A stretch of 64,000 bases of DNA from Planctomycetota bacterium (GTDB lineage Bacteria > Planctomycetota > Phycisphaerae > Phycisphaerales > UBA1924), in contig JAJRPN010000027.1 of the NCBI GenBank assembly GCA_024280755.1, positions 33,267-97,266 of the forward strand. The letters run 5' to 3'. A model generated the notes under the pieces. The model did not search any database and had not been told where the DNA came from. It saw only the letters and a list, made by a program, of their open reading frames with translations. Shown here in pieces: positions 1,942-64,000 of this stretch. How positions within the stretch are numbered: position 1 is the first letter of the stretch; every line of letters starts with the position of its first letter. Both the position numbers and the translations under genes were made by a program.

Positions 1942-3675
1942 ATGCTGCGATTTGTTACCCCAGATAAATCTTCCGAGTTGTCATTGCAGGTCTTGCCCGG
2001 CGCCTACCTCCTTGGCCCAGACTCGGTCCCTATCGCGGGGGAAGTGGTTGTTGAGGGTGGTGTGATTCGGTGTGAAAAAGGGACCCGCGAAGCCGCATCG
2101 CTGGCGTTGCAAGTCGACCTCGACGAAGCTCGGCTTGCCAAGAGCTCTCCCCGTGCGACCCGCAAACCAATAATTGATGATATCGAGCTTAAGCCACTGG
2201 GTACCTGGACGCTTCAGACCTGCCTGCTTCCCGATCGAGACCACCCCTATATTTTGGCGCTCGAACTCGCTCGCCATCGGATCATGCTGTTTTTGACCAA
2301 ACTCGAAGACTGGCAAGCATTCGATATCGATCCCGATTCTCAAGCGATGAGGCTCTTTGATGCTGCTCGTGAAGTATTCACCAAAGCACTCGTCGCATCG
2401 AGCGAGCATACTGGCGATGTCGAAGAGGCATCGAGGCTCGGGTTCTTGTCGCTCTGGATCGCGCTTGAGGCCTCCGAGCGTTTGGCGTTGTTGGTCACCG
2501 ATCGAGACTTTGGCGATCGGATGAATGGGCAGTTATATCTTTCGGTTTCGGAAGAGCATGGGATCACCAAAAAAGCGGTGCCGGTGCTTCATCCAAACCG
2601 AGGCGGGGTTGTATTGCCAACCAAACCTGCCATCGGCGCATTGGTTTCACCGAGTATGCTCAACGAGCAGACCAAAGCCGCAGCCGTCAAAGCGTGTGAT
2701 TTCATATCTCTGCCTATGCGATGGGTCGAGATGGAACCACTCGAAGGCGAGTACGCCTATACCCCAACCGACAAATGGATCGAGTGGGCAATTCGCTCTG
2801 CGAAGATGCCCGTCGTTGCTGGGCCAGTCATCGATTTTCGCCCGCAGAGTGTTCCCGAATGGTTGTACATTTGGGAGAACGATTACGAAACGCTCCGCGA
2901 GTTGGTCTATGAACATCTCAAAGCGATCGTCACACGCTATCGCCGAACCGTGAGCCGATGGACGGTGTGTTCTGGTCTCCATTGTGGCGAGCATTTCAAG
3001 CTTGATTTCCAGCAGATGATCGACCTGACCCGTATCTGTGTGTTAGTTGTTCGTAAACTCCATCCGCGAGCAAAGGTGCAGGTCGAGATTGTTGAGCCTT
3101 GGGGCGAGTATCACACGAGTGATCGAAAATCGCTCCCGCCTTTGTTGTATGCAGAGATGCTGACACAGTCGGGGATTCCGATCGATACCTTCTCGCTGCG
3201 TGTGCAGATGGGCTCGTATGAATCGGGCTTATCCTCGCGCGATCTGATGGCCTTCTCTGCGATGCTCGATCAATATGCGATGCTCGACCGTCCGATCGCG
3301 ATCTCGGCATTTGGTGCGCCATCTGGGCGTTTGATCCCGTCGGGCGATGAAGACACCAGGCCACAAGCCGGGCATTGGCGTCAGCATTGGACAGAAAAGG
3401 GACAGGCCGATTGGATGTCCACCTTTGGCGCGATCGCGCTCGCCAAGCCGTTCGTAGAATCGATCTGCTGGCACGAGCTTGCCGATCCAAACGGCGCGAC
3501 CGAGATGCGTACCGGCGGGTTGTTGAACCGCCGAGCCGAGCCCCGCGAGGTACTCGATCGGGTCGTCGAACTCCGCCAAGCGGTTGAATCTTGCACATTG
3601 CCTCAACGGTTTATGGCCGACAACTTCCTGCACTTTGAGAATGATCAAGCACCAGCCAGCGAGATCGGGTCGTGA
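1942..3675 (+). CDS. hypothetical protein, possible GH10-like TIM-barrel fold
   Basis: 577-aa ORF. The segment MRWVEMEPLEGEYAYTPTDKWIEWA...VPEWLY...LKAIVTRYRRTVSRWTVCSG resembles the GH10 pattern W..EP..G.....D....A...P.W......Y.G.I..WDVVNE. The NE acid/base position reads SG. Confidence 0.35.
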   Translation: MLRFVTPDKSSELSLQVLPGAYLLGPDSVPIAGEVVVEGGVIRCEKGTREAASLALQVDLDEARLAKSSPRATRKPIIDDIELKPLGTWTLQTCLLPDRDHPYILALELARHRIMLFLTKLEDWQAFDIDPDSQAMRLFDAAREVFTKALVASSEHTGDVEEASRLGFLSLWIALEASERLALLVTDRDFGDRMNGQLYLSVSEEHGITKKAVPVLHPNRGGVVLPTKPAIGALVSPSMLNEQTKAAAVKACDFISLPMRWVEMEPLEGEYAYTPTDKWIEWAIRSAKMPVVAGPVIDFRPQSVPEWLYIWENDYETLRELVYEHLKAIVTRYRRTVSRWTVCSGLHCGEHFKLDFQQMIDLTRICVLVVRKLHPRAKVQVEIVEPWGEYHTSDRKSLPPLLYAEMLTQSGIPIDTFSLRVQMGSYESGLSSRDLMAFSAMLDQYAMLDRPIAISAFGAPSGRLIPSGDEDTRPQAGHWRQHWTEKGQADWMSTFGAIALAKPFVESICWHELADPNGATEMRTGGLLNRRAEPREVLDRVVELRQAVESCTLPQRFMADNFLHFENDQAPASEIGS

Positions 3676-7679: not shown

Positions 7680-8411
7680 ATGCCAGAATCGAACGATACA
7701 TCCTTTGAATCCAGCCCAATCCAGCGTGTCGGCGGGGAAACCCAGCTTGATCAGCAACTCGCCTCTCTTCGCCGAAGGCTGATTCGCGAGGCTTCGCAAG
7801 CGGTCGATCTGCTCTCCCAATCAATCGAAGTTCTCTGGACCGCCGATCGCGAAGGCGCCAAAGAGGTCAAGCGGATCGAAAAGCAGATCGATATCGAAGA
7901 GGTTCGCATCGAGCAAGAGTGCTTCCGAATCCTTGCACTCCAAACACCGTTCGGGGCAGATTTTCGGCTGATCACTTTCAGTCTCAAAGCAAACTCAGAT
8001 ATCGAACGCCTCGCCGATCATGCCTCTTCGATCGCCAAGATCAGCAAGCGTTTCGAAGCTGAGTCTCCAGATTGGCCAGAGTCATTGCGTGAGATGGGCG
8101 AGCGGGTGCCGATGATGTGCCAAGAGTTATTGCGCGCAGTGATTAGTGCTGACATCAATGCAGCCAAAGAGGTTGTTAAGCGAGACAAGATCATCGATCG
8201 GCTCGACAAACAGACCTTCAAAGAACTCACACAGAAGATTGAATCCAACCCATCATTCGCATCAGACTACATGTTGATGTACCGCATCTCGCGAGAACTC
8301 GAACGAGTGGGGGATCTGCTTGGCAATATCGCCGAAGATATTGTATACTTGGTGACGGGTGACATTGTGCGTCATGCGCCTAAGCCTAAGAAGAAGAAAG
8401 CCGAGCAATAG
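7680..8411 (+). CDS. phoU: phosphate signalling complex protein PhoU
   Basis: Two PhoU repeats ending ...ERLADHASSIAK and ...ERVGDLLGNIAEDIVY. No pst genes are adjacent. Confidence 0.85.
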   Translation: MPESNDTSFESSPIQRVGGETQLDQQLASLRRRLIREASQAVDLLSQSIEVLWTADREGAKEVKRIEKQIDIEEVRIEQECFRILALQTPFGADFRLITFSLKANSDIERLADHASSIAKISKRFEAESPDWPESLREMGERVPMMCQELLRAVISADINAAKEVVKRDKIIDRLDKQTFKELTQKIESNPSFASDYMLMYRISRELERVGDLLGNIAEDIVYLVTGDIVRHAPKPKKKKAEQ

Positions 8412-8440: not shown

Positions 8441-10088
8441 ATGCCTCAGATCATCATAACCATTGGAGCCTTGCTCTTACTCGTCGGCCTTGCCGCGATG
8501 GTCAGATCAATCAAGGGGCATTTGATTGCAACGCCACCACTTTGCCGAAAGTGTAAGTACGATCTGTCCGGGCTCGAAATTTCGGTTGATGGGCACTGCC
8601 CTGAGCGCGGGCGAACGGTTCTCGATGGCACACGATCGGTACGCCGAAGCCAGCGGAAGTTTCGCTTAGGGTTGCTCCTGTGTTCACTCTTGATGATCAG
8701 CACGGGTTCGATCGGCCTTGCGTTTCCAAAGATCATGGGGATGCCGGCGTTTGATCGTGTTGATTTGTACAGCAGCCGATCGGAGATATCGCTCATGGTC
8801 TTCGAGCGTGTTGGTGATGAGCGGGCGGAAATAGTTCTCTATCAGAAGCTCATGCGGGGCGAACTCTCAGACCGCGGTGTTGATCGGCTGACCAAACTCG
8901 CGATCAAGAAATATCAAACAGAGCAGGCCGGTTCTCTTCACAGTAGATGGAATCATGTGATGTCACTCGCCATGCTCGAACATCGGCTCAGCGACGAGCA
9001 ACTCCATGCCTTCATCGAGCATCAGGTAACTACCAAGTTCAAGATTAGAACCGAGATCCATCCCGATGATCCAGAGGTCTTCGCGATTGTCTGGATTGAT
9101 GAGCCGGGGTTTGTTTCTCGGACAAACTTCGCCCGGGTTCCATGGCGGAAACGCCAAGGGATGCCGATAGATGTTCGGTTTGAATCGCCGTTTACACTTG
9201 GAGGCAAAGTCTTTGTTGAGGTGATCTCTGGAAATCATACCAGCCGCCAAGAAATCGGCTCAATCACATCGCCCATTTTGGGAGCACATTAGAAAGCCAC
9301 TCAAAGCCCGGATCTCGGCGCCGATCGATTCAGGAATCTTCAATGTTCATTTCGAATACCAGTTCGAGGTGATGGAGGGCGACACGCTTATTCATGCGTG
9401 GACACAACGCGAGGTGGTCACTGTACAAAGATCGCAAGCCGACGGTTTCGTGTATGCGCAACCGATCGACGATGTACCCGTGATCCAAAGTATGATCAGT
9501 CGGCTGAGCTTTCACGCGGTGAAGGTTTCAACCAAGCGTGAAGAGGCCCGACAGTTCGACGGCACTAACGGCAATGAGATCGCCCAACCTGTTGTCCGAC
9601 TGAAAAGCTATCAGATCTTCGATCATTCACTCCTAGGCGATATCCGAATCCGAATTGGTGACACCGAGATTTCGTACGATCCAATCGTCTGGAAAGTCAA
9701 GCCACATCCGCAAAGCCCCAGGGGGATGTCCGTCGATTACGACGGCTGGGGTTGGGCCGGGCCAAGCGATTTTGATCAGGTGCTCGACTATTTGGACGAA
9801 CACGCCGAGTTCTGGGCGAGGGCATTGGAAGTCGGCAAGGTCGATGTACTGATCGTTCCCAATGCCGAACTTGCCAGAGAGAATCCGGGGGTTGAATCGT
9901 TCGTGAACCGAACAATCATCTTCCGCGATGTCCCGATTCATGGGCTCGAGCCGTTGTACAGATCGGGCATCGGGAGCACCGGCCATCCCTACTACATCAT
10001 GCGTTGGCAGCCGATCGGCGGGCATGAGCAGTTCAAATCCAAGCCCCGAACCCAGCCAGTGATGGCCGAGATTCTTGAGACAGAATAA
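8441..10088 (+). pseudogene. array copy 1 of the TM/zinc-ribbon/TM paralogue family, disrupted by a frameshift
   Basis: ORF 8441-9292 matches the N-terminal half of the family and ORF 9369-10088 the C-terminal half. The second frame is already open from 9225, so the two frames overlap at 9225-9292. The shift is +1. The ribbon motif reads CPERG instead of CPECG. Confidence 0.7.
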
Positions 10089-10134
10089 GCCAAACGCCGA
10101 GTTTGCATTTGAATAATGTTATATACTCATCTCC

Positions 10135-11790
10135 ATGATCATCATCGGAATCGCTTTATGCACGCTCGGAATATTCACCCTCTTTCTTGCCCTTCGCGGT
10201 CGGCTGATATCAAACAACCCACACTGCCATGGCTGCAAGCTCGATCTCATTGGACTCGAACTCAATCAAGATTCCATCTGCCCAGAGTGCGGCAAGTCGA
10301 TCGTTCCAGACACACCCACAATCCAGATCGGGCTACGCAAACGCCGACCACTCATTGCTGCGCTCGCACTCATGCTCATCTTCGCCGGCGGCGTGGGGAT
10401 AGCTTGGCCCAAGATTTCACAGATGCCTTCGATCAAGAACATCGATTGGTACGCCAAGTTCCCCGAACCCATACTCCTCAAACTCGAAGCCAGAAGCGAC
10501 AAGAAAGCCCTCCAAACACTCCACGACCGACTCATCCCCGGTACGCTGAGCGACGATGGTTTGCAAACCCTCATCACCCGATCATTCGCCATGATCGATG
10601 ACGAAACAAACGCATGGGACGAGCGGTGGGGGGATGTGCTGATCTATGCGTTGCTCTCTGAGAAGATGACGCAAGAGCAAGTCCATCAGTACTTCGAGAG
10701 AGCGTTTGAAGTCAAGGTCGATTTCTATTCGGAGATCGGCCACGATGTCGAGCAGACCAGCTACATGACGCATGTCGGCGGGGCGGATCGCGGGGGAAGT
10801 GAAACGAACTTCCGGTATGATTGGGCGCGAACAAGGAATGCGAACGGGATGTGGGGCGAACTTGATTCGCCGTACCAGCACAAGGTAGAGAGCAACTTAC
10901 CCTATAAGCCAGGGCTTGACGCAAAATCGGGAGGCGCGGGCATGTCTGGAAACATTGATTTGAACGAGGATATGCAGTGGATTCCATATTCACAAAATAG
11001 CACAGGTACAGGATCGAGCATACCTCTCGACCTTGAGATGGACGAGTTTGATTTCGTATTCAGTTTCACCATCGAGATCTATAAAAATCGTGAACTTTAT
11101 CACGAGTGGACTAAGCGAATAGTGCATCATGTCACGCGGGTTGATCATCCCCAATATCAGCAGTTCGCTGATGACCCCACAGAAGTGAAGATTCTGGTCG
11201 AATCAATGTCGATGAGCCCGATTCAGATTCCTACAAATCTAGAAGAAGCGTTTTTGCATGAGGATTTACTCAGCCGAAGGCCATCGCTGAGTGCAATCAA
11301 CACAACGCTTGATTCAGAGCATGGATTACTTGGTGAGTTATTTTTCCGAGTCGGCGATCAAGAACTCATTTTTCAGAAAGTAAGATTTACTGGTAAGCCC
11401 AACTGGAGCATGGCTTTAACTTCCACCTCGTCCGGCTGGACGCGTGAAAACTCCTGGCTCAACTACTTCACGGACTCCCAAGCGTTCTGGAAGCAGGTGC
11501 TCGAAGCAGGCAAAGTTGATGTGATCTATCGACCAAGACCAGAAGACGGCATCGATGCGCCAGCGATCAAATCGATGGTCAATGTCCCGATCATCTTCCG
11601 CGATGTGCCTGTGATTAAAATCATCCCCAAGAAAGCAACCTACACCGACAGAGCCACCGGCGAAGAGTATCAAGAGTGGAGGTTCAGACCTGAGCATGAA
11701 AGGCAGTTTGGTATGAGTTACACTCAAGCACAGTTGAAGCAGTTCTCGAATCCCAAGCCGGTCGCAGGCGAACTACTCGAAGAAGACTAA
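10135..11790 (+). CDS. array copy 2, TM/zinc-ribbon/TM membrane protein of unknown function
   Basis: MIIIGIALCTLGIFTLFLALRGR..CHGCKLDLIGL..CPECG, a second hydrophobic helix, ERWGDVL, and a C-terminal FWKQVLEAGKVDVIYRP...IIFRDVP. Homologous to the other five copies. Confidence 0.85.
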   Translation: MIIIGIALCTLGIFTLFLALRGRLISNNPHCHGCKLDLIGLELNQDSICPECGKSIVPDTPTIQIGLRKRRPLIAALALMLIFAGGVGIAWPKISQMPSIKNIDWYAKFPEPILLKLEARSDKKALQTLHDRLIPGTLSDDGLQTLITRSFAMIDDETNAWDERWGDVLIYALLSEKMTQEQVHQYFERAFEVKVDFYSEIGHDVEQTSYMTHVGGADRGGSETNFRYDWARTRNANGMWGELDSPYQHKVESNLPYKPGLDAKSGGAGMSGNIDLNEDMQWIPYSQNSTGTGSSIPLDLEMDEFDFVFSFTIEIYKNRELYHEWTKRIVHHVTRVDHPQYQQFADDPTEVKILVESMSMSPIQIPTNLEEAFLHEDLLSRRPSLSAINTTLDSEHGLLGELFFRVGDQELIFQKVRFTGKPNWSMALTSTSSGWTRENSWLNYFTDSQAFWKQVLEAGKVDVIYRPRPEDGIDAPAIKSMVNVPIIFRDVPVIKIIPKKATYTDRATGEEYQEWRFRPEHERQFGMSYTQAQLKQFSNPKPVAGELLEED

Positions 11791-11808
11791 TCCCCAAGGC
11801 ATACTTCC

Positions 11809-13296
11809 ATGATCATCATCGGCTCCATCTTCTGTACCCTCGCATTGCTCATCCTTCCCTTTGCATGGAGAGGCCGAGTCATCGCTCGCGGCCAGTTCTG
11901 CCGAAAGTGTAAGTTTGATCTCGCAGGGTTGGACATAGAACATCATGAATCCAAGTGCCCAGAGTGCGGCGGCGGGGTTGAGTCTGATTCGAGCCGACGG
12001 GTGCTGCTCCGCAAGTCTTCGGCGGCCGGCTTGGTCTTGGGCATGGTCTTGCTTGTTTCAGGGGCCGGGAGTTTGGGCATTGGTACCACAGGCAAAACGA
12101 GCGTGCTCTTGGGTGTGCTTCCCGACAACGCGGTCTTCTGGCTTCATGATCTGGGTGTAGATGAAGCGCTCGATGAAATCGTCGCGCGTGTCTCGCTCGT
12201 CCCGATCACGCTGGCCGAGAATTTACAAGCCAAGGCGATTAAGGGTGGGCTGGCACACCAGGCCGACACCACGCAGATTTGGGACCCTCGCTGGGGCGAG
12301 GTGCTTGCCGTGATGTCAGGCTATCCGAGCATGAGCCAAGAGCAGATTGCCCAGTACATCGGCAACGGGATCAACATTCAAGCCCAGATTCGAGATCGAG
12401 TATATCAGGGCGCGGGCAGCGTTGATTTTACACTGACCACATCGCAAGGCCGAATAACATCTCTCAACTTCATGGATACAGGGTTTTTCATATCTCAAAA
12501 ACCAACTCAGACGGGTATAGTGGGGGAAGACCCCGAGGTCTATCCAAAAAATGCGGGTATTGCCACCAACCTGACTGTATCAAACTCTGGAGGGATGGTC
12601 ATGCCTTGGAAAGGGAAGATCACTCCAGCTACGGGCGGGTTCGATGTCGAGCCCGGGACAAGCGTGCAGGTGTTCGTCGAGTATGAACTGAGATACTGGC
12701 CCCGAGGCGGCAAGGGATTCAGCGCCGGCAAGCACCGTCTTGAGCAATCAGTGCTGGTGCTTGCTCACGAAGATCAGATCGTGCCTTTGTTTAAGGATCA
12801 GGAACTTGCACAACAGATCTGCCAGGCGATCTCGATTTCAACGGTCCGTGTACTCAAAGAGATCCCGGATGTTGATCCGATGCGTGGGCATTCGGTGTTG
12901 GCGATCAGAACACAGTTCGAGCCACTGCCGGCAACAACCGCCTTCGATGTATTCTTTCGCTTTGATGGCGGCGAAGAGTTTCAATTCGGCAGCCTGATCA
13001 ACCATGACCCAGACCAAAGACGGCGCGGGGGCATTCTGACATGGCCCCGGGGGATCTTTATTGAGGAAGTTCGAGCCCCGACTGGCCCGCTCGTCGCACG
13101 ATTAGTCGCCCAAGGCAAGGTCGATGTCATCATGCGACCAAACGCATCATTGGCCGACACTATTCCGAGGATCGAGCGAGTGCTTGATGTCTCGCTCGAG
13201 TTCCTTGATGTCCCCGTTGAGATCGTTGATAAAGGGTTTGGATTGCAGAAAACCGCAAACAAGCCCGAGCTTCTGCACGCAGGGCAGTGCCCGTAA
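11809..13296 (+). CDS. array copy 3, TM/zinc-ribbon/TM membrane protein of unknown function
   Basis: RGRVIARGQFCRKCKFDLAGL..KCPECG, DPRWGEVL, QGKVDVIMRPN...LEFLDVPVEIV. Confidence 0.85.
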   Translation: MIIIGSIFCTLALLILPFAWRGRVIARGQFCRKCKFDLAGLDIEHHESKCPECGGGVESDSSRRVLLRKSSAAGLVLGMVLLVSGAGSLGIGTTGKTSVLLGVLPDNAVFWLHDLGVDEALDEIVARVSLVPITLAENLQAKAIKGGLAHQADTTQIWDPRWGEVLAVMSGYPSMSQEQIAQYIGNGINIQAQIRDRVYQGAGSVDFTLTTSQGRITSLNFMDTGFFISQKPTQTGIVGEDPEVYPKNAGIATNLTVSNSGGMVMPWKGKITPATGGFDVEPGTSVQVFVEYELRYWPRGGKGFSAGKHRLEQSVLVLAHEDQIVPLFKDQELAQQICQAISISTVRVLKEIPDVDPMRGHSVLAIRTQFEPLPATTAFDVFFRFDGGEEFQFGSLINHDPDQRRRGGILTWPRGIFIEEVRAPTGPLVARLVAQGKVDVIMRPNASLADTIPRIERVLDVSLEFLDVPVEIVDKGFGLQKTANKPELLHAGQCP

Positions 13297-13353
13297 GAGA
13301 TAAATATACATCAGAACTGAACCGCGAATGGATGGTTTCTGTATACTGATATA

Positions 13354-14898
13354 ATGATTATCATTGGAATCGCATTATGTATCGTCGGCTTATTCGTTCT
13401 CCTTTTCTCATGGCGCGGACGAATCGTCGCCCGCGGGCAGTTCTGCCGAAAGTGTAAGTTTGATCTCGCAGGGCTCGATCTTGAGAGCGATCAAGCCAAG
13501 TGCCCAGAGTGCGGCAATGAGGTTCATCAAGAATCCGCCCGCCGAACACTACTCCGCCGACGATCCCGACTCGGTCTTACAGTTGCAACATTGATGCTCA
13601 TCGCCAGCATCACGACCCTCGGCGTCTGGTCATCAGGAAACGCCAGCGTCATCCTCGGCGTCATGCCCGATTCGATCATCCTCCAACTCGCCGACATGGA
13701 TATGGACGCAGCACTCGACGAGCTAGTAATCCGTGTCTCGCGGGTGCCCAATCCGATGACACCGAGCCAGATCAACAGAGCAACAAAGATGGGACTTGCA
13801 CATCAGGCCAATCTGCTCGTTGGTTTCGATCCTCGATGGGGCGAAGTGCTCTATCTCGCCTGTGCGCAGAATCAGATGAGCGATGAACAAATCAGTGCAT
13901 ATCTGCTCGCCGGTATCCAAATCGACATGCTCATGCGAGATCGTGTACATCAAGGAGCCGACAAGCTTGATTGCTTCATGGAAATTTCTCCTGGGAGATT
14001 CGAAGCATTGACAGGTGGCCAAGTTGGATACACAGTTCAAGCCAAGTGGGTAGCCGATGGTATTGTCGGCGAACCTACAAGGAAATACTCAGAGTCAGGA
14101 GCAATAGCCGCCCAAGTCCGCGCACCGAGCGGGGGCTGGTGGTCGACCGGAGCGCCGTACCCGATTCACCCAACAGGAGCCGGTTTCGATCAACCAATCG
14201 GGACAAAGGTGCGTGCGTATCTTCAATATGACTTTATTATTGAGTATGTCGGCGATCGGTATGGCAACGCAGGCGCGATCGGGCTTCGTGAAGATGAGCC
14301 CAGCGATGGCAAGATCATCTTAGACCGGATCACCGTTGAGCAAGATGTCGAGATCATCGATCCAGCCGAACCTATTGTGGAAACCATCGAAGATCCAAAG
14401 ATTGCCAAGTTGGCGGCTGAGTCACTTTCGATGAGTTCGATCAGGGTAAAGAAAACGCTTCCGGAACCTGAGTATCAGAACTTCCTCATCCCTCTCTCGA
14501 TCAGTAGAGAATCAAGATCACTCCCCGAGTCGATCTCTCTTCGTGTCTACATTCGGCTAAAAAATGGCCAAGAGGTCGAGATCGGCAGTTGGGTCAACCA
14601 AGACCCGTCGGGCGGACAGCACGGCTCTGGGCTGATGTGGCGGGTCAACCCCAAGGAGAAAGGCCAAGAAGAGCTTGAGCGTATTCAGGAAATCATAGAT
14701 GAGCTGATCGAGGCCGGCAAGGCGGATCTGATACTCCGAACCGATCCCGATCTGGCTCGGGGTAATCCAAGAATTAAACAGGTGATCGGGTTCTCGATGA
14801 TCATCGAGGATGTCGCCGTCAAGGTTGTTGAAGATCAGACGAGCATTTACAGCTCTCAATCGGGCGATTGGTTCAAAGGCAAGGTGCTCAATGAGTAA
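13354..14898 (+). CDS. array copy 4, TM/zinc-ribbon/TM membrane protein of unknown function
   Basis: RGRIVARGQFCRKCKFDLAGL..KCPECG, DPRWGEVL, AGKADLILRTD...IIEDVAVKVV. Confidence 0.85.
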   Translation: MIIIGIALCIVGLFVLLFSWRGRIVARGQFCRKCKFDLAGLDLESDQAKCPECGNEVHQESARRTLLRRRSRLGLTVATLMLIASITTLGVWSSGNASVILGVMPDSIILQLADMDMDAALDELVIRVSRVPNPMTPSQINRATKMGLAHQANLLVGFDPRWGEVLYLACAQNQMSDEQISAYLLAGIQIDMLMRDRVHQGADKLDCFMEISPGRFEALTGGQVGYTVQAKWVADGIVGEPTRKYSESGAIAAQVRAPSGGWWSTGAPYPIHPTGAGFDQPIGTKVRAYLQYDFIIEYVGDRYGNAGAIGLREDEPSDGKIILDRITVEQDVEIIDPAEPIVETIEDPKIAKLAAESLSMSSIRVKKTLPEPEYQNFLIPLSISRESRSLPESISLRVYIRLKNGQEVEIGSWVNQDPSGGQHGSGLMWRVNPKEKGQEELERIQEIIDELIEAGKADLILRTDPDLARGNPRIKQVIGFSMIIEDVAVKVVEDQTSIYSSQSGDWFKGKVLNE

Positions 14899-14970
14899 TC
14901 CATCAGATACATATGAGGCGGATACTTCTGACCCAACCCATCGCCCAAAGGGCATGTTTGAGAGACTGAC

Positions 14971-16527
14971 ATGATGATATTGGGTGGAATCGCAATCTGT
15001 ATAACCGGGATCGTCGGCTTCGCCCTCGCAATGCGTGGGCGAGTCGTAGCCCGTGGCCAGTTCTGCCGAAAGTGTAAGTTCGCCCTTGCAGGGATTCCAA
15101 TTGAGTCGCCAGAAACCAGATGCCCAGAGTGCGGGCGCGAGGTTCATAATCCTGCCCGCCGGCGAGCCAAACTCCGTAAAAAATCAAAGCTCGGGTTCGG
15201 CATTGCCGTCTTCCTGTTCTTCTCAGGCTTTGGGTTCATCGGAGTCAGTATAACGAACCAAACAAGCGTGTTCATATCAGCAATGCCTGATGGAATGGTT
15301 CTCCAACTCACCGATTGGGGCCTAGACGAAGCCCTCGATGAACTGGTCGTTCGTACATCTGCCGTGCCGATGACCATGTCAAAGACACACCAAGATCGAG
15401 CAATTAAGCTCGGACTTGAGAACCAATCCAATCTCGATGTCGAGTTTGATCCACGCTGGGGCGAGGTGCTCTATCTCTCCTGTGCTGATGGGCGAATGTC
15501 CCATGATCAAGCGGGGCAATACATTGCCAATCTTGATGATGTGAAGATCACCATGCGAGATCGAGTGCATGCAGGATCACGATGGATAAAGGTCAAGATG
15601 GCCGTGCAATCAGTGCGGAATATCTCACTTACCGGCGGCAGCCTTCCGTATCAACGAACGATCCGTGTTTCACGGGCTGGTATCGTTGGGCATGAAGAAA
15701 TTAAATCACGAAACGGTGGAGGGATGAGGCTTCCTGTAAGCATACAAGTAATCAAAATTGACTGGATGAACACATTACTGAGATATTCGATCAGCCTCAA
15801 ACGCGATGGACAACTCCCAACGGTCGGCGAGCTGCTCGACTTTGGTTTGGAATATACGATAGAGGTTCGGCCCAAAGGTGAAGACCAGGTGATCTACACC
15901 AAAACGATGAGTGTTGATCATCAGATCCAGGTCATTGATCCCAATGAACCCATCGTGCCAGTATTTGTGAATCGTGAACTTGCTCAACAAGTTGCTCAAT
16001 CACTCTCGATCAAACCCATTCAGGTAACCAAAGCGTTTCCCGACAAGGACAAGTTCCAAAGCACGGTGCCAACACTTTCCATCACCCGCCAAGAACAGAA
16101 CCTTCAAGAAACGATATCGTTTCGAGTCTTTCTCCGATTGAATGATCCTGAGCAGGATCATCACGAGGAGATAGAGATCGGGAAGTGGGTCGCGCCCGGC
16201 ACTCACAACCCCCCCCAAAATAGTCTGAATCATTCACAAATGGAATGGCGGGTAGATCCGAAGGATGCAATCAAGGTTGCCTATGCCCGAGAAACAGTTG
16301 ATCGGATGATTCAACTCGGCAAGGCCGATGTGATACTCCGAACCGATGCTTCACTGGCAGAGGATGATTCGGAGATTGACCAGGTTATTGATCTGGTGAT
16401 GATCTTTGAGGATGTGCCTCTAGAGATTGTCGAATCGATTTCAGGTTTCTGGAACTCGGGTTCGAGCGATTGGATCGCAGGTCAATATATCGATACGCCC
16501 GCCAGCGATGCCTCGAACCAACCTTGA
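14971..16527 (+). CDS. array copy 5, TM/zinc-ribbon/TM membrane protein of unknown function
   Basis: RGRVVARGQFCRKCKFALAGI..RCPECG, DPRWGEVL, LGKADVILRTD...MIFEDVPLEIV. Confidence 0.85.
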   Translation: MMILGGIAICITGIVGFALAMRGRVVARGQFCRKCKFALAGIPIESPETRCPECGREVHNPARRRAKLRKKSKLGFGIAVFLFFSGFGFIGVSITNQTSVFISAMPDGMVLQLTDWGLDEALDELVVRTSAVPMTMSKTHQDRAIKLGLENQSNLDVEFDPRWGEVLYLSCADGRMSHDQAGQYIANLDDVKITMRDRVHAGSRWIKVKMAVQSVRNISLTGGSLPYQRTIRVSRAGIVGHEEIKSRNGGGMRLPVSIQVIKIDWMNTLLRYSISLKRDGQLPTVGELLDFGLEYTIEVRPKGEDQVIYTKTMSVDHQIQVIDPNEPIVPVFVNRELAQQVAQSLSIKPIQVTKAFPDKDKFQSTVPTLSITRQEQNLQETISFRVFLRLNDPEQDHHEEIEIGKWVAPGTHNPPQNSLNHSQMEWRVDPKDAIKVAYARETVDRMIQLGKADVILRTDASLAEDDSEIDQVIDLVMIFEDVPLEIVESISGFWNSGSSDWIAGQYIDTPASDASNQP

Positions 16528-16553
16528 CCTGCCGGTTTTGGTACACTTTATCC

Positions 16554-18152
16554 ATGATTATCATCGGCATCGTTCTTCTGAGTGTTGGTTTACTCGTTTC
16601 TCTGCTTGCTTTTCGTGGGCGGGTAGTTGCGCGGGGACAGTTTTGTCGGAAATGCCGGTTCGACCTCGTGGGGTTGGATATTGATTCGCCCCAGGCCAAG
16701 TGCCCAGAGTGCGGCAGCGAAACCCACCAAGATTCCGCCCGCCGACCCTTGCTCCGTAAACGATCGCGGGTCGGATTGGGTGTTGCTTTGATCATCATGC
16801 TCGCAGGCGGAGCCGGTATCTGGGCTGGAGCAGCCGGCAAGACAGGTTCGATCATCACCGCCATGCCCGATCCGATTGTGCTGTGGCTGACGGATTGGGG
16901 CGTGGATGAAGCCCTCGATGAGCTGGTGGTGCGGACATCCAAGGTGCCCAATACGATGTCGGCGAAGAGCTGGGACGATGCGATCGAGCAGGGGCTGGCG
17001 TTTCAGGCGGATACGGCGATGGTGTGGGATGTGCGGTGGGGGGAGGTTTTGTTAATTGCGATGCTTGAGAGACGCCTTGCAGGCGATGCCTTATACAAGT
17101 TTGTAGAGTCCTCGCTCATTGCTGAGTTTGAAACGAGGCAAATCATTCGAGATGAGGATCAGATGGTTTACTACCGTCTCATTGTGAAGGGCAATCCTCG
17201 GGGGACATCTGCAGCAATCCCATTCTTGAGGACACCCAAGTCAAGAGTTTTGAATAAATGGATGAAATCCCAGGGAACAGAATCACCGTTTCAGATCAAT
17301 ATCGAGTTTGAGCGTGACTGGATAGATAAACCATTCCCTATTCAAATCAGCGGCGGACAGGTGTGGCTCAGAGAATGGGCTCCTGTCGCGGGAAACCATG
17401 TCGATTTTCTGCGATGGATTCCAGTTCCAACGGATTCTCACGATGAGATCACACTACATTCAAGAGCGGATTTTGCATTGTTGGTAGATGGTCAAGAGGT
17501 TCATGCCTGGTCTTTGCAACTCGAGAAAACAATCCAAAGATCAGCCGAAGCGATTGAGTACGCACAGGCGGTATCGAATGAGAATATCGTCAATCAGTTT
17601 GTGGATGGATTGTCAGTTGGCTATGTCCAGCTTCCCACTAAACGATCGTTGGGTCGAATGCACTTTGGGACTCGAGATGGTAGTAATGCAAGAACTATCC
17701 GAGTCCATTATCGAGGGGAAGTATTTCCAGCCGGGATAGCGATGCTCTTTGATGCTTCAGTGGCAATAGAAGGAGTTGAAATTGAGTATGCAGGCTTGTT
17801 TACAGACGCTCCAAACGCACTGAATTTCAAACGAGGATGGAGACAAGGGAAAAATATGCTCGACTACTTTGATCAGCACGAAGAGTTCTGGCAGACCGCA
17901 TTGGAACGAGGGAATGTCGATCTCATTTTACGACCCAACTCTGAGTATGCCAAATATGACCCAAGGTTCACGGCTTATCTCGAGGCAAAGGTGATCTTTC
18001 GAAATGTGCCGTTGATGGTACTTGTGCCTAAAGATACCGGAGATATCTGGGAAGAGACAGGCGAGCCCCAGTGGCGGTGGGTTCAAGAGAAACAACAAAG
18101 TTATCCATCTACCCTTGCTGAGATTCTTATCGAGGGTGATGATGAGGAATAA
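16554..18152 (+). CDS. array copy 6, TM/zinc-ribbon/TM membrane protein of unknown function (mosaic)
   Basis: The ATG at 16554 gives MIIIGIVLLSVG..., matching the start of the other copies. The track start at 16470 overlaps copy 5 and is probably spurious. RGRVVARGQFCRKCRFDLVGL..KCPECG. C-terminal FWQTALERGNVDLILRPN...VIFRNVP. Confidence 0.85.
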   Translation: MIIIGIVLLSVGLLVSLLAFRGRVVARGQFCRKCRFDLVGLDIDSPQAKCPECGSETHQDSARRPLLRKRSRVGLGVALIIMLAGGAGIWAGAAGKTGSIITAMPDPIVLWLTDWGVDEALDELVVRTSKVPNTMSAKSWDDAIEQGLAFQADTAMVWDVRWGEVLLIAMLERRLAGDALYKFVESSLIAEFETRQIIRDEDQMVYYRLIVKGNPRGTSAAIPFLRTPKSRVLNKWMKSQGTESPFQINIEFERDWIDKPFPIQISGGQVWLREWAPVAGNHVDFLRWIPVPTDSHDEITLHSRADFALLVDGQEVHAWSLQLEKTIQRSAEAIEYAQAVSNENIVNQFVDGLSVGYVQLPTKRSLGRMHFGTRDGSNARTIRVHYRGEVFPAGIAMLFDASVAIEGVEIEYAGLFTDAPNALNFKRGWRQGKNMLDYFDQHEEFWQTALERGNVDLILRPNSEYAKYDPRFTAYLEAKVIFRNVPLMVLVPKDTGDIWEETGEPQWRWVQEKQQSYPSTLAEILIEGDDEE

Positions 18153-18201: not shown

Positions 18202-18231
18202 AAAAAGCCTGCTCGTGAGAACAGGCTTTTT
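18202..18231. terminator. bidirectional stem-loop terminator between the array and the 16S gene
   Basis: AAAAAGCCTG-ctcgtgagaa-CAGGCTTTTT. The GC stem is flanked by an A-run on one side and a T-run on the other, so it is usable from either strand. It lies 50 nt after the copy 6 stop. Confidence 0.6.
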
Positions 18232-18438: not shown

Positions 18439-19926
<1,488 letters not shown>

Positions 19927-20432: not shown

Positions 20433-21350
20433 TCAAAGATCCAACTGACGATCACGCCGATCAGATTCGCTCGCGACTCCGATGCAAGCTGCCCAGATTT
20501 CAATATGCTCCTGAAGGGTAGAATTAGTGCGTAATTCATCCTGAATCGCCATTTTGAGCGTCTTGCTCGCTGCGACAAAGGTTGCTCCGGTGGTGCGGAC
20601 ATCATCAATCAGAATGAAAACCCGCTGATCTTGCGCCATGATTTTTTTCATCATCCGTCTGTCTTTGCTCGAAAAGAAAAAAGCATCTTTGATATTTTCT
20701 GCTCTGGCAGTCATCGAAAGCCCAACTTGCTCGGGTCGCCATTGCGATGATAAGGCCTGGTGAACTTGGCAGCCGCTGGTTTGGGCTGCTCCGCGAGCAA
20801 TCACCAGCGTGTGATCGACCCCGCGAGCGATCCGCCGGAATCGGTGCATCGGGATTGGGACCAGCACCGCTTGATCCGGTCGGATCTGGGCATGTTCGAG
20901 TTGAGCGAGGATCGCGTGCCCCAAATGAAGCCCAAGCCCGGTGCCTGTGGGGCGCCAATGGGCAAACTTGAGCGATAGGATCTCTTCGCGGAGCTTGGCG
21001 CCATATTTTCCGAGCCGGATCGCTCGATCCCAATGCAGTTTCTTCTCTCGACAGCTCGCGCACCCTTCGCCATCGCTTTCATACAGCCCGATGCCCGACC
21101 CACAACGCCAGCAATAGTCTGATGTCTCATCGCGGGTCCAACCCGTTTGCATTGCCCATCGATCAAACGCCAACGAGGTTCGTCCAAGCAGGTGCGTTTC
21201 GATGGATTCGATCATTCGGCTCGGGAGCCGAATCTGGATCGGAGCTTTCCTTATGGAACGCTCTGGTTCGGGCTCTTGAGGCGGCCAAGTAAATGCACCC
21301 TGTTGTTTTTGTACGCGGGGCTGCTCGGTTTGCTCGTCAATATGCGACAT
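20433..21350 (-). CDS. comF: ComF family protein (phosphoribosyltransferase domain with N-terminal zinc ribbon)
   Basis: CWRCGSG..CASC ribbon, VPIPMHRFRRIARGVDH, and the PRPP motif VFILIDDVRTTGAT. The start overlaps the mcsB stop by 1 nt (TGATG). Confidence 0.8.
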   Translation of the reverse strand: MSHIDEQTEQPRVQKQQGAFTWPPQEPEPERSIRKAPIQIRLPSRMIESIETHLLGRTSLAFDRWAMQTGWTRDETSDYCWRCGSGIGLYESDGEGCASCREKKLHWDRAIRLGKYGAKLREEILSLKFAHWRPTGTGLGLHLGHAILAQLEHAQIRPDQAVLVPIPMHRFRRIARGVDHTLVIARGAAQTSGCQVHQALSSQWRPEQVGLSMTARAENIKDAFFFSSKDRRMMKKIMAQDQRVFILIDDVRTTGATFVAASKTLKMAIQDELRTNSTLQEHIEIWAACIGVASESDRRDRQLDL

Positions 21351-22504
21351 CAGTGTGGACCGGCGTCTGGGGTCTTGCTTGATGAGCCAAGTGTGGCGCT
21401 GATATGTGCTGCGCGAGCGGCTCGGCGTTGTGATTGGGTCAGCACTTCGTCGAGGATCTTCTGGAGATGGATCGGCTGGGTGCTGAGCAATAAACCATGC
21501 ACCTGCTCGAGCGTGATCCCCTCAAGAATCCCGGTTAACACACCAAGCCGAACAAGGCTCAACAAATCGAGCGCCTCGTCCACCTTGATCAGTTTGGCAT
21601 ATCGAAGCGTGCCCAATGCTCGGGAGATCTGATCTTCGATCAGTTCTTTGCGATTGCTCAATAGGTTTTTGCGAGCATGGCGTTCATATCCAACCACCCG
21701 AGGCACAATTTCGTGTTCCATCTCACGCAACAGCATCTCATCAGATTTGCCCAGCGTGGTCTGGTTCGAGAGCTGATAAAACTCGCCTGAAGACTCAGAG
21801 CCTTCACCATGAAACCCACGAACCGCGAGACCCATGTCGTTGGCTGCTCGCTTGACCTTATCAAGCTCGCCCGTGAGTTTGAGGGCGGGGAGGTGGAGCA
21901 TGACGGAGAGTCTTAGCCCGGTGCCCACATTGGTTGGGCATGCGGTGAGGTATCCAAAGCGGGGGTGATAGGCATAGTCCATGCCCGCTTCGATCATGTC
22001 GTCAAGCTCGTTTGCCTCTGCTAAACAAGCACCAAGTGCTAATCCAGAGTGAATGGTTTGGATACGAAGATGATCTTCTTCGTTGATCATAATGCTTACG
22101 CGTTCATCGGGGACAAGCACCGCGACGCCTCTGGGTTCTTCGAGCCCGCCCTTGCCCGTGCTGAGCTTGCCCTTTGCGTGCTGGCGAGACATCAGTTGAC
22201 GCTCGACAAGCAGGTTCCGATCTTCGCGACCGGCACGGTGCAAATCGATCCACATAAACTGCGACGCCGACCCGGTGGTCATGCCAAGAATACGATGCTT
22301 GCACGCTTCGAGGATCTGCGTTCGATCAATCCGCGATGCCTGAGGCGTAAACGGGAACCCCGCGATATTTCGCGCCAAACGAACACGCGATGACATCACG
22401 ACATCGCTCGATTCGCCCAACCCACGAAGCCACTCGGCACGCTTGGAAAACGCTTGCTCGCGCAGTGGGTTTGATCCTTGAGGCGTATCGTCGGCTGCCT
22501 GCAT
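21350..22504 (-). CDS. mcsB: protein arginine kinase (ATP:guanido phosphotransferase)
   Basis: VMSSRVRLARNIAGFPF, NEEDHLRIQ, GYLTACPTNVGTGLRLSVM. Confidence 0.85.
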   Translation of the reverse strand: MQAADDTPQGSNPLREQAFSKRAEWLRGLGESSDVVMSSRVRLARNIAGFPFTPQASRIDRTQILEACKHRILGMTTGSASQFMWIDLHRAGREDRNLLVERQLMSRQHAKGKLSTGKGGLEEPRGVAVLVPDERVSIMINEEDHLRIQTIHSGLALGACLAEANELDDMIEAGMDYAYHPRFGYLTACPTNVGTGLRLSVMLHLPALKLTGELDKVKRAANDMGLAVRGFHGEGSESSGEFYQLSNQTTLGKSDEMLLREMEHEIVPRVVGYERHARKNLLSNRKELIEDQISRALGTLRYAKLIKVDEALDLLSLVRLGVLTGILEGITLEQVHGLLLSTQPIHLQKILDEVLTQSQRRAARAAHISATLGSSSKTPDAGPH

Positions 22505-26399: not shown

Positions 26400-26768
26400 T
26401 GTATTTCTCCAAACTAGATGTCGATCTTCCTGAGCATCGACTGGGTTTTGTGTTCCCGATCGAAGTGGATCGGGGTTGGTTTCGTGTGTGTCAAGCGGGT
26501 GCTCGACACCTGATATCTGGGAATCTGGGTTGTTGAATTTCATCGTCAGCCAGAAAAACACAAGAAAATCATCTCCAATGGGGCAACTGTGTGTTCTCGG
26601 ACAGTCAAAATTCGCTTTTATGCACCCTTAGACGGGATATTCGGGTATCCTGATAGGAGGCGTTCATATGAAACTCGGACGCGGAATTTCCTAAGAATGC
26701 TGATCCCGCTGCCGGTCTCGCTGGTAGAACGGATGTCCGGTCTCAAGTGTTTCGATGAAAGAGGGTCC

Positions 26769-27554
26769 ATGCTTACCAATATGACGACTAGTTTTATCGC
26801 CCGGTTGCGTGCCAACGACGAAGCCGCCTGGTTTGAACTCTGGGAAACCTTCGGGCCGGTAATTCGCATCCAGCTTTCGCGCTGGGGGCGTGGGCGCATC
26901 GGGGTCGAGACTGTGCGGGATCTTTCGCAAGAAACACTCGCAGCGTTGTCGAACTCTATAGATAGGTATGACCCTGCGCGCGGGGCTCGTTTCTCGACCT
27001 GGTTGTTGGCGATCGCCAAGCATGTGCTGGGCGATGAGATTGATCGAAGGATGGCCCTCAAACGCGGCGGGGGCAAAGCCAACGCGCAGTTTGATGAGAC
27101 TTGGATGAAAGCAGATGCGACCCAAGGCGTCGATGAAATCTACGAGGCCTCCATCTTCTGTGCCAAGGTCGAAGCAGCGATTAAAATGGTCGAGCGAGAG
27201 ACCGATTTTACGGACTTTACGATCTATCGGATGCGTGTGCTTGATGGGCAATCTGGTAAAGAGGTTGCGGTGGCGATCGGGGTGTCTGAGCCAACGATTA
27301 GTCGACGGCTGGCCAAGGTCCGAGGCGTATTACGGGTTCGTCTGAGCGAGGTCATCGCGACTTATTCGTTTACATCTGATGAACTGTCCGAAGCGGAGCG
27401 AAATGGATTGACGCTGAATCCCAAGAATGAGGGCAGCGGGGAGGTCGGCCCTGCGGATAAAGCCGCCGATGTCATGTTTGATGACGCGATCGCGGAAATC
27501 TACCACCGGCAAATGTTGCTGCGAGCCGAGGATGAACAAGCCCTTTTGGGTTGA
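26769..27554 (+). CDS. ECF-type RNA polymerase sigma factor with C-terminal extension
   Basis: Region 2: VRDLSQETLAALSNSIDRYDPARGARFSTWLLAIAKH. Region 4 HTH: GQSGKEVAVAIGVSEPTISRRLAKVRGVLR. About 70 aa follow region 4. The start was chosen at the ATG at 26769. Confidence 0.8.
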   Translation: MLTNMTTSFIARLRANDEAAWFELWETFGPVIRIQLSRWGRGRIGVETVRDLSQETLAALSNSIDRYDPARGARFSTWLLAIAKHVLGDEIDRRMALKRGGGKANAQFDETWMKADATQGVDEIYEASIFCAKVEAAIKMVERETDFTDFTIYRMRVLDGQSGKEVAVAIGVSEPTISRRLAKVRGVLRVRLSEVIATYSFTSDELSEAERNGLTLNPKNEGSGEVGPADKAADVMFDDAIAEIYHRQMLLRAEDEQALLG

Positions 27555-61975: not shown

Positions 61976-62006
61976 TATGAATGACGCGTTTCCAATTTGA
62001 GATGAA

Positions 62007-62034
62007 TTGTGGATAAGTAGTTGTGCGTTATAAT
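62007..62034 (+). promoter_or_regulatory. candidate sigma-70-type promoter for the 62165 gene
   Basis: TTGTGG (62007-62012), 16-nt spacer, perfect TATAAT (62029-62034). An AGGAG SD follows at 62153. Confidence 0.3.
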
Positions 62035-62164
62035 CAGATGATGGGTTGTATGCTGTTTAGCAGAGTTATGTGAAAAAATCATATTTCCTTTGTGACGGTC
62101 TTGGTGAGTTGTGTATCTTCCTATGGTGCATGGTGCATGGTTGGACTCTTATTAGGAGAAAAGC

Positions 62165-63106: not shown

Positions 63107-63118
63107 AGGTAGCACGCA

Positions 63119-63922
63119 TTGAAACCGTTGAAAGAAGTTTTGAAAAAATTGGCAATGGTCATAAGCATGATCATTGTCATTTATATCGCTAATTACACAG
63201 CGAAGTATTCTGCCTCTGTATTGCTTTCAACAAGACTGTCATCAGATGTTTGGCAACTTGGATCGTCAAGCAGTAGGCTTGTGCCTGACACCCCTCACTC
63301 ATATCGTTTTTATTCAAATCGAGGTACAAGTCCCACCGTATTTGGGAGGTCGGCAAGTGTGACCCTTCGGCCACACACATCGAATGCAATGGCACTGTTC
63401 GAGAGTCTTCCAAATCCACTGAAGAAGCCTATTTATTGGGAGTGTTCGCCCACTCGCTATTTAGGGGCTTATCTGTTCGTTTTGATCACAGTGGTTTTGT
63501 ATAAGATATTTTTGCAGGGCAATCGTGGGGGGGGTGTTTTACTCAAGAAAACAGTTATTGTTTTGTCATGCGTGCATATAGCAGGGATGGGCATGGTATA
63601 TCCCGCAATGAGATTGTTTTGGTCTGGTATGCAGGAGGCGTTAAAGCACAAGTACATATCGGGCACTCGTGAACTCGATTCGACTCGTCTGCTCTGGATG
63701 TCTTCAGAGATTCATAATACTCTCTACATTGGAATACTTGGAGCGATGGTCTGGTTAACCCTTCTCCTTTCAACCAAGGGCGATGGTATGCGATCTTCTG
63801 ATTTGAAGTTGAATAAATCGAAAGGGATGTATTTTATTCGAAATGTGATTGGTGTTGGGGCTGTTCTATTTTGCATTATGGCACCATTGTCTATGCCGTT
63901 GACGATCGGGTTGATTATTTGA
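63119..63922 (+). CDS. multi-pass membrane protein, unknown function
   Basis: 267-aa ORF with several hydrophobic helices. TTG start at 63119 or ATG at 63155. AT-rich. Confidence 0.45.
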   Translation: MKPLKEVLKKLAMVISMIIVIYIANYTAKYSASVLLSTRLSSDVWQLGSSSSRLVPDTPHSYRFYSNRGTSPTVFGRSASVTLRPHTSNAMALFESLPNPLKKPIYWECSPTRYLGAYLFVLITVVLYKIFLQGNRGGGVLLKKTVIVLSCVHIAGMGMVYPAMRLFWSGMQEALKHKYISGTRELDSTRLLWMSSEIHNTLYIGILGAMVWLTLLLSTKGDGMRSSDLKLNKSKGMYFIRNVIGVGAVLFCIMAPLSMPLTIGLII

Positions 63923-64000
63923 TTGCTGTGTTTCTTCAAAATTCAGATCTGTGAATCACTCTTGATGTTGACCTGCCCCCCAATAACTAGTCCATTCCTT

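Follow-up and report, generated by a model that had tools for sequence, protein, structure and literature searches.

Tandem genes for an uncharacterised family of hairpin-anchored periplasmic proteins in the Phycisphaerae

A 64,000-nucleotide stretch of a Planctomycetota genome of the Phycisphaerales (contig JAJRPN010000027.1, positions 33,267 to 97,266), referred to here as the window, carries at positions 8441-18152 a tandem run of homologous plus-strand genes, five of them intact (G2-G6) and one broken (G1). Our data strongly support that the encoded proteins insert into the cytoplasmic membrane as a helical hairpin whose short cytoplasmic loop is a rubredoxin-type four-cysteine ribbon, and that their remaining ~420 residues are periplasmic, comprising a conserved helical domain followed by two beta-sandwiches like those of immunoglobulins (Ig) and fibronectin type III (FnIII) domains. 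The paralogues are old, are matched by orthologues in related genomes and, with purifying selection acting on every domain, change more quickly than housekeeping genes do. Tentatively, we take them for an uncharacterised family of the Phycisphaerae made up of non-enzymatic periplasmic binding or scaffold proteins, whose copy number changes by crossing-over. A first-pass annotation made from the sequence alone had described seven consecutive homologous plus-strand open reading frames (ORFs) forming a six-gene array. All seven ORFs are present and align with one another at 22-40% pairwise identity, over their full length in the case of G2-G6, and the tandem array is real; it consists, however, of five intact genes plus one apparently decaying copy, the frameshifted G1.

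Results

A hairpin anchor followed by three periplasmic domains

All copies share one plan, in which a transmembrane (TM) helix, a basic CxxC...CPECG ribbon loop and a second TM helix precede ~420 residues outside the membrane. The hydrophobic segments lie at residues ~1-25, directly from the start, and ~71-95. As the loop between them is strongly basic (8-16 K+R versus 4-7 D+E), the positive-inside rule places it in the cytoplasm, and the topology first assigned to these proteins, with the ribbon inside and the rest outside, is supported by the two hydrophobic segments together with this charge balance. In an alignment of 62 close homologues C31, C50, E52, C53 and G54 are invariant, C34 is kept in at least 90% and the RWG motif is conserved; the four ribbon cysteines are invariant also in 40 distant members. 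Their spacing is that of the Cys4 knuckles of zinc ribbons of the rubredoxin type (CxxC ... CPxCG, ~15-20 residues apart). Mean pairwise identity falls from 78% at residues 21-40 to ~50% in the helical region and to 15-28% in the middle of the protein (the two sandwiches, D1 and D2), before climbing to 38% at residues 461-480, so that conservation declines from the ribbon through the helical domain and the C-terminus of D2 to D1. Between paralogues the core is 13-23% identical.

AlphaFold2 (AF2) models were built with family alignments for G4 (predicted local distance difference test, pLDDT, 87.3; predicted template modelling score, pTM, 0.75) and for G2, the most divergent copy (pLDDT 88.2). 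Both contain TM1, a small beta/knuckle ribbon, TM2, an all-helical domain and the two Ig/FnIII-like beta-sandwiches. In G4 the helical domain (~90 residues) spans residues 97-187, D1 188-345 and D2 358-492; in G2 the corresponding elements are TM1 at 2-21, the ribbon at 22-70, TM2 at 72-94, the helical domain at 98-190 and the beta domains at 191-336 and 358-519. The helical domain is marked by E..R, Q.D and W...WG motifs, its conserved residues being E123..R127, Q151 and D159-x-R-W-G163 (with R161 and W162). These models and the alignments bear out the domain layout originally read from the sequence, namely TM/ribbon/TM, helical region, core and C-terminal module. The ~200 residues that were said barely to align are indeed of low identity, but they are D1 and the first half of D2 and have the same fold in G2 and G4, and the conserved C-terminal tail 'GKVDVIxR ... 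IFxDVP' forms the last strands of D2. The beta-sandwich fold is thus predicted to be kept across the copies despite the drift of their sequences.

Scans of all copies against Pfam, NCBIfam and PADLOC returned nothing above threshold and only sub-threshold zinc-knuckle noise (in PADLOC-DB against Cas12f, E 0.035-0.063), a sequence-profile search of the PDB gave C2H2/LIM zinc-finger noise only, and a Pfam scan of the 40 distant members found no family match either. The initial statement that neither a catalytic motif nor a known family could be recognised therefore stands for these four collections. Foldseek searches with both models retrieved generic tandem Ig/FnIII sandwiches, of which RbmA was best (E 5e-7 and 3e-5, probability 0.99-1.0), followed by transglutaminase C-terminal barrels, Vps26/arrestin, PapD-like chaperones, Gram-positive pilins and Spo0M; neither the helical domain nor the hairpin of the two models had a significant match. 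By its class, the modelled fold suggests binding or scaffolding over catalysis, and it gives no family assignment.

Orthologous groups, purifying selection and array turnover

In a neighbour-joining (NJ) tree of 36 full-length copies, orthologous groups extend across genomes (L001 and similar labels denote related loci, L001_2 and the like their copies). G3 falls with L001_2, L005_1, L006_1, L007_2 and L008_1, G2 with L001_1, G6 with L004_2, and G4 and G5 with L001_3 and L004_1. Within the last group G5 stands beside the clade of G4, L001_3 and L004_1 and has no one-to-one orthologue in close relatives.

As synonymous divergence (dS) is saturated between paralogues of 22-40% amino-acid identity, the ratio of non-synonymous to synonymous divergence (dN/dS) was calculated by NG86 from eight orthologue pairs of related metagenome-assembled genomes (MAGs), 68-89% identical, instead of from paralogues within the window. 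Pooled by domain, it was 0.31 for the hairpin, 0.14 for the helical domain, 0.23 for D1 and 0.25 for D2, compared with 0.01-0.16 for mfd and phoU in the same genome pairs. Taken pair by pair D1 ranged from 0.17 to 0.32 and D2 from 0.13 to 0.32, no domain exceeded 0.5 in any pair, and the overall ratio of the array proteins was 2-10 times that of mfd and phoU. The core thus appears to be less constrained, not diversifying. A conserved anchor and a conserved tail around a divergent core had initially been taken for the layout of a diversified receptor family; this we could not uphold, the core being two Ig-like sandwiches of one fold in G2 and G4 with low pooled ratios in both. The counter-evidence named at that time, related genomes carrying the same six orthologues under purifying selection, was found in part: the orthologues and the purifying selection are there, whereas copy number varies from 1 to 5-6 and chimeric copies occur. 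The pattern is one of birth-and-death evolution, not of six fixed genes.

The chimeras suggest how the array is resized. L004_1 is 79% identical to L001_2 over residues 1-75 and 84% identical to L001_3 over the remainder, and L004 has one copy fewer than L001; in a second case the first helix of L008_1 resembles that of L007_1. Since chimeric copies go together with the loss of one copy, unequal crossing-over in the conserved 5' module is the likely mechanism. Chimerism also accounts for the high hairpin dN of some 'orthologous' pairs, and the up to five-fold variation of dS between domains within one gene pair agrees with mosaic histories. Direct repeats in the DNA fall into the same tandem register and recur every 1545-1682 nt. 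G3-G6 share 61-71% identity over their 5' 204 nt, and recent gene conversion within the window was rejected as these modules are no more alike than that. Near-identical pairs of template and variable repeats, of the kind used by diversity-generating retroelements, are absent from the array, in which DNA repeats are 60-90% identical over short stretches, and no reverse transcriptase is found among the immediate neighbours scanned.

G1 is a single gene with a frameshift between ~9200 and ~9315. Compared by tblastn with G2 and L001_1, it is read in frame 3 and then in frame 1, with homology resuming at ~9315, and the homology to G2 runs on in the other frame upstream of the GTG of its second ORF. 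In addition, CPERG replaces CPECG, with loss of the fourth cysteine, and RWN replaces RWG, with loss of the invariant glycine. Among intact copies it is nearest to those that come first after phoU in L005 and L010 (35-42% identity). These features mark G1 as a probable pseudogene, a copy in decay. Phase variation at the frameshift was rejected, there being no homopolymer or simple repeat at that place. Family copies split like G1 into an N-part and a C-part ORF were also seen in L016, L020 (11527-13031), L022 (9932-11458) and L025; these could be real pseudogenes or errors of assembly or sequencing.

Distribution of the family

A word-indexed search found 62 close homologues, all of them unannotated, the sole named one coming from a Phycisphaerales MAG; repeated with a profile of distant members it added little, finding only 8 proteins. 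In an exhaustive HMMER scan of 1.84 billion cluster representatives, 1797 clusters (formed at 50% identity) matched at E<=1e-3, of which 400 did so at E<=1e-10. The distant members carry the whole plan, with an hhalign probability of 100% over 441 columns. Every member whose source is named is a 'hypothetical protein' of a Phycisphaerae, Phycisphaerales or Phycisphaeraceae MAG, which agrees with the earlier suggestion that the family is undescribed, and as far as seen the family is confined to the class Phycisphaerae of the Planctomycetota. The literature on Phycisphaerae, zinc ribbons and membrane proteins yielded nothing relevant, nor is the family mentioned in a metaproteome paper devoted to a Phycisphaera bin.

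Internal duplication was seen in some members. In P0142 (838 aa) and P0171 (802 aa) the periplasmic module, helical domain plus sandwiches, is duplicated; in these two and in P0131 and P0184 either the whole periplasmic unit or only the last sandwich is repeated behind a single hairpin anchor.

The locus, its neighbours and its transcription signals

As first described, the array begins 29 bp after phoU, has spacers of 18-72 bp and ends at a bidirectional terminator; the terminator reads AAAAAGCCTG-N10-CAGGCTTTTT, the gap inside the split G1 is 76 bp, and the feature coordinates are collected in Table 1. The terminator was missed by the scan tool because its loop exceeds 8 nt. The start of G6 was set at the ATG at 16554, not at the TTG at 16470, because of the conserved MIIIG start and the TACACT upstream of it.

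Table 1. Features of the array, its flanks and the chimeric copies of related loci. Coordinates are those of the window, except in the last two rows, where they are those of the loci named.
Feature	Coordinates	Strand	Description	Evidence
phoU-like gene	7680-8411	+	two PhoU domains; constant upstream neighbour	Pfam PF01895, E 6e-32
G1	8441-10088	+	frameshifted copy, ORFs 8441-9292 and 9369-10088	
G2	10135-11790	+	551 aa; divergent subfamily (RGRLISNNPHCHGCKLDL); domain plan as in the other copies	ORF
G3	11809-13296	+	495 aa; member of the most widely conserved orthologous group	ORF and NJ tree
G4	13354-14898	+	514 aa; reference copy for structure	AF2 model
G5	14971-16527	+	518 aa; nearest paralogue of G4	ORF and tree
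G6	16554-18152	+	532 aa counted from the ATG at 16554; orthologue of L004_2 (74% identity)	
G4 TM1	13357-13416	+		AF2 model
G4 zinc-ribbon loop (putative)	13417-13533	+		AF2 model
G4 TM2	13567-13632	+		AF2 model
G4 helical domain	13642-13914	+		AF2 model
G4 beta-sandwich D1	13915-14388	+		AF2 model
G4 beta-sandwich D2	14425-14829	+		AF2 model
-10-like TATACT before G2	10122-10127	+	7 nt before the ATG; candidate leaderless promoter	
-10-like TATACT before G4, preceded by TG	13342-13347	+	6 nt before the ATG; candidate leaderless promoter	
-10-like TACACT before G6, preceded by TGG	16542-16547	+	6 nt before the ATG; candidate leaderless promoter	
Bidirectional intrinsic terminator	18202-18231		A5-GCCTG-loop10-CAGGC-T5; common to the array and the convergent 16S rRNA gene	read directly off the sequence
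16S rRNA gene	18445-19926	-	convergent with the array; constant downstream neighbour	Rfam RF00177, 1485 bits
Chimeric copy of L004	9983-11536, versus L001 8442-11551		5' ~75 codons from one paralogue, the rest from its neighbour	
Chimeric copy of L008	9989-11500, versus L007 8430-11500		5' ~75 codons from one paralogue, the rest from its neighbour	

Gene order is conserved as mfd - phoU - array - 16S rRNA (convergent) - comF-like in 23 loci wherever the contig is long enough; these are GTDB species representatives, all but three titled Phycisphaerales or Phycisphaeraceae, and the same order is found in three metagenome contigs. The 16S genes of the related loci are 91-99% identical to that of the window. 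Each Phycisphaerales genome examined has at least one copy of the family: L011, L015 and L023 have one, most loci two to four and L007 five. The position of the array near dnaA is also kept in relatives. phoU lies directly 5' of the first copy in the 23 Phycisphaerales loci and in the more distant L027, where a family member follows phoU and is itself followed by comF, mcsB, rpmB and dnaA, mfd being absent. Elsewhere, distant members occur as three tandem copies beside a family-9 glycosyltransferase and as single copies adjoining a P-type ATPase, yidC, an alanine dehydrogenase or a Ser/Thr kinase, with no phoU nearby. Given these varied contexts there is no constant partner gene across the family, and the adjacency of phoU is inseparable from general synteny, which makes phoU context. 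As a candidate operon partner phoU was accordingly down-weighted: the whole region is syntenic, first copies have a -10 of their own, and distant members do without it. No pst genes of a Pst/PhoU phosphate-signalling operon are present at the locus, where the neighbours are mfd, phoU, 16S and comF.

A scan for consensus promoters and terminators found no excess of sites inside the array, and it missed the -10 elements of leaderless type as well as the terminator. Of 63 copies, taken from the window and the related loci (25 loci), 37 have TAnnnT, often as TGnTATACT, in the spacer 5-8 nt upstream of the ATG, compared with 1.8% of all ATGs of that DNA (binomial p ~1e-47, the copies not being independent of one another), and the first copy after phoU usually has such an element. 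At a distance of 5-8 nt a -10 element would start the transcript at the start codon, so that, judging by the motif, the mRNAs would be leaderless. Probably, then, most copies are transcribed separately from leaderless promoters. The array had been described as probably one transcription unit, which is at odds with the elements before G2, G4 and G6; these elements argue against obligatory co-transcription with phoU as well. TAnnnT at 5-8 nt upstream was also noted before unrelated starts at 23091 (minus strand), 31431, 38941 and 42654, which suggests that a leaderless arrangement may be widespread in this organism.

Other features of the window

The 16S rRNA gene is complete and stand-alone, with no 23S or 5S gene beside it within the window, and this stand-alone convergent arrangement is kept in essentially all related Phycisphaerales loci. 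Downstream of it lies a 305-aa minus-strand ORF (20433-21350) that is conserved in all relatives and has two CxxC pairs and a motif, 'ILIDDVRTTGAT', like that of phosphoribosyltransferases; by eye it appears ComF-like, and it has no Pfam match at E<=1e-3. It is followed by mcsB at 21350-22504. Upstream of mfd a 577-aa plus-strand ORF (1942-3675) shows a weak match to glycoside hydrolase family 10 (E 1.4e-5, just above cutoff), and relatives carry its counterpart as an unannotated 584-aa gene.

Further away, a plus-strand gene for a sigma factor of the extracytoplasmic function (ECF) type (26589-27554) is followed after 36 bp by one for an 819-aa Ser/Thr protein kinase (27591-30050, plus strand), and the two may constitute a sigma-kinase pair. 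The 2-kb composition profile shows an AT skew of +0.29 at 32001-34000, inside a 737-aa ORF (31431-33644), and a GC content of 0.46 in the last 2 kb of the window (62001-64000) compared with ~0.54 elsewhere.

Discussion

Based on these data we propose, with slightly less than even confidence, that the array encodes old paralogues of a Phycisphaerae family of non-enzymatic periplasmic binding or scaffold proteins. The Foldseek classes are in line with this, all of them (RbmA, transglutaminase barrels, PapD-like proteins, pilins, arrestin/Vps26) being tandem beta-sandwiches of the binding or scaffold type. The hairpin and the helical domain, the most conserved parts, would form a common module through which every paralogue docks to a single common partner or to the other paralogues, the ribbon hairpin engaging a cytoplasmic or membrane partner, and the less conserved beta-sandwiches would give each paralogue its own stable binding specificity in the periplasm. 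Copy number would change by unequal crossing-over in the 5' module that encodes the hairpin and by pseudogenisation, as in G1.

Several points weigh against this proposal. The binding or scaffold role is drawn solely from the predicted fold class and from the absence of catalytic signatures, and E123, R127, Q151, D159, R161, W162 and G163 could instead make up an active site, the proteins then being enzymes that have escaped recognition. Matches by Foldseek are generic, with a template modelling score (TM-score) of 0.12-0.17 on the query and at most ~0.38 on the target. The zinc ribbon is putative, its residues having a pLDDT of only 59-74 in the G4 model. The dN/dS values are domain averages from eight pairs, which a few positively selected sites would escape, and the promoters are read from motifs only. 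Finally, the chimeras come from MAG assemblies and could conceivably be artefacts, although at 60-80% DNA identity a collapse of copies is unlikely.

The proteins might instead be signal transducers, in which the periplasmic sandwiches sense a ligand and the hairpin relays its presence to the basic zinc-ribbon loop, which would bind or release a cytoplasmic regulator, with the PhoU-like neighbour, a sigma factor or nucleic acid as candidates and with anti-sigma or ToxR-like one-component systems as analogues. We consider this unlikely, yet it deserves more weight than the other alternatives. No part of the protein is better conserved than the cytoplasmic ribbon, as would suit a specific partner in the cytoplasm; the loop is also strongly basic, and the adjacency to phoU in the 23 loci survives in L027 despite a different gene upstream of phoU. 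However, mfd, phoU, array, 16S and comF are syntenic as a whole, which renders the adjacency unspecific, a -10 element of its own usually precedes the first copy after phoU, and distant members stand beside unrelated genes without phoU nearby. Moreover, the cytoplasmic part is only ~50 residues long, and the zinc-binding anti-sigma (ZAS) motif and an adjacent sigma factor are both missing, the nearest ECF sigma factor being encoded 8 kb from the array at 26589.

Somewhat less probable still is that the paralogues are subunits of an envelope complex, co-assembling by hairpin and helical module in the manner of pilins so as to form or anchor a structure in the periplasm, such as an envelope spacer, a tether to peptidoglycan or outer membrane, or a part of the FtsZ-less division apparatus. 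By analogy, a conserved anchor with variable globular domains in tandem would be the layout of a pilin or pseudopilin cluster; the position near dnaA is kept in relatives, the family is universal in the Phycisphaerales examined, and P0142 and P0171 duplicate the whole periplasmic module. Against this, there is no sign of oligomerisation and no class III signal peptide, the single copies of L011, L015 and L023 speak against an obligate hetero-oligomer of several paralogues, and the link to division is pure speculation. To our knowledge the Phycisphaerae lineage is without FtsZ and many canonical envelope and division proteins. A broader version, which we think improbable, is that of a Phycisphaerae-specific envelope module in which the hairpin with its rubredoxin-like ribbon serves as a device by which the paralogues assemble or as a coupler of events in the periplasm to a conserved cytoplasmic partner such as the adjacent PhoU-like protein; if true, the origin-proximal array would encode a hitherto undescribed machine, particular to this class, that organises the envelope or signals.

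A diversifying receptor or binding array with a core under positive selection, serving phage or predator interaction or surface variation, we regard as very improbable: it could draw on the low core identity between paralogues, the variable copy number, the mosaic copies and the raised overall dN/dS, but both sandwiches have ratios well below one in all eight orthologue pairs, orthologues are recognisable across genomes whose 16S is 91-99% identical to that of the window, the proteins are anchored in the inner membrane and not at the cell surface, PADLOC gives no matches, and there are neither near-identical template/variable repeats, nor a reverse transcriptase among the immediate neighbours scanned, nor a homopolymer or simple repeat at the G1 frameshift.

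Returning to the proposal of binding or scaffold proteins, the evidence as a whole points to an ordinary lineage-specific expanded family of membrane proteins and gives no support to a new system of the diversifying, defence or receptor kind. The Phycisphaerae, which abound in the sea as degraders of polymers, have an unusual cell biology, and the membrane proteins peculiar to their lineage are for the most part unexplored. Here a class-specific family of ~1,800 clusters at 50% identity is without a Pfam or NCBIfam model, while its array lies near the origin, at a conserved locus, in each of the Phycisphaerales genomes examined. Annotators could gain a domain model, consisting of the TM-zinc ribbon-TM hairpin, the 'WxxxWG' helical domain and two Ig-like domains, and experimentalists a tractable target. 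The same locus provides a clear case of a tandem array probably resized by unequal crossing-over within a conserved 5' module, and of apparently leaderless promoters in the Planctomycetota.

Comparison with known systems

RbmA of Vibrio cholerae (PDB 4kkp, 4be6), a scaffold protein of the biofilm matrix built of tandem FnIII domains, shares with the modelled array proteins two consecutive FnIII/Ig-like sandwiches and has the non-enzymatic binding or scaffold role that we propose for them. Identity is 5-8%, TM-scores are 0.14-0.16 when normalised to the query and 0.27-0.31 when normalised to the target, and the root-mean-square deviation is about 20 A. For the match with E 5e-7 and probability 1.0 the values are 0.16, 0.30 and 19 A. 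RbmA is secreted, is without anchor, ribbon or helical domain and belongs to no shared sequence family in Pfam; the resemblance seen in the models is at the level of fold class only. Matches to arrestin/Vps26/Spo0M (Foldseek E 5e-6 to 3e-4, TM-score 0.12-0.14 on the query and <=0.27 on the target) have no counterpart in Pfam, and the same holds for PapD-like chaperones, which were matched generically by Foldseek (FimC, E 1e-4), with no usher or pilin genes at the locus.

Pilin and pseudopilin clusters of type IV pili and type II secretion systems (T2SS) likewise combine tandem paralogues, a conserved hydrophobic N-terminal module and divergent periplasmic domains, and recombination in the conserved 5' part of pilin genes is known. 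Unlike type IV pilins, the array proteins begin with MIIIGIALC... and have no class III signal peptide, prepilin peptidase site or conserved Glu5; their anchor is a two-helix hairpin with a zinc ribbon, and genes for an assembly ATPase or platform are not found nearby, which leaves an analogy. Membrane anti-sigma factors and ToxR-like bitopic transducers also link a small, possibly metal-binding cytoplasmic element to a beta-rich periplasmic domain. They differ from the array proteins, which have two TM segments instead of one and neither an HxxxCxxC ZAS motif nor a helix-turn-helix (HTH), and next to the array there is no gene for a cognate sigma factor or regulator. A search for ZAS anti-sigma features (Hx3Cx2C, an adjacent ECF sigma gene) gave no match of the zf-HC2 or RsrA type, the neighbours being phoU and 16S rRNA.

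A close parallel is offered by the 'zinc_ribbon_2/DZR - TM - DUF4352' proteins of Firmicutes, which are widespread, uncharacterised and anchored by a zinc ribbon, with an extracytoplasmic beta-sandwich and often multiple paralogues. Like these, the array proteins tie a small cytoplasmic Cys4 ribbon to a membrane span, expose Ig-like beta-sandwiches outside, have no catalytic domain and come as several paralogues. In contrast, their ribbon is the loop of a TM-ribbon-TM hairpin and does not stand N-terminal to a single TM segment, and a conserved helical domain precedes the sandwiches; the comparison covered Pfam models. By score, the best matches stay below the Pfam gathering thresholds both for DZR (PF12773; 17.2 bits versus a cutoff of 27.3) and for Zn_ribbon_8 (PF09723; 15.3 bits versus 34.4), so that formal family membership is not reached. 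In kind, the array proteins would stand nearest to zinc-ribbon-tethered membrane proteins with Ig-like ectodomains.

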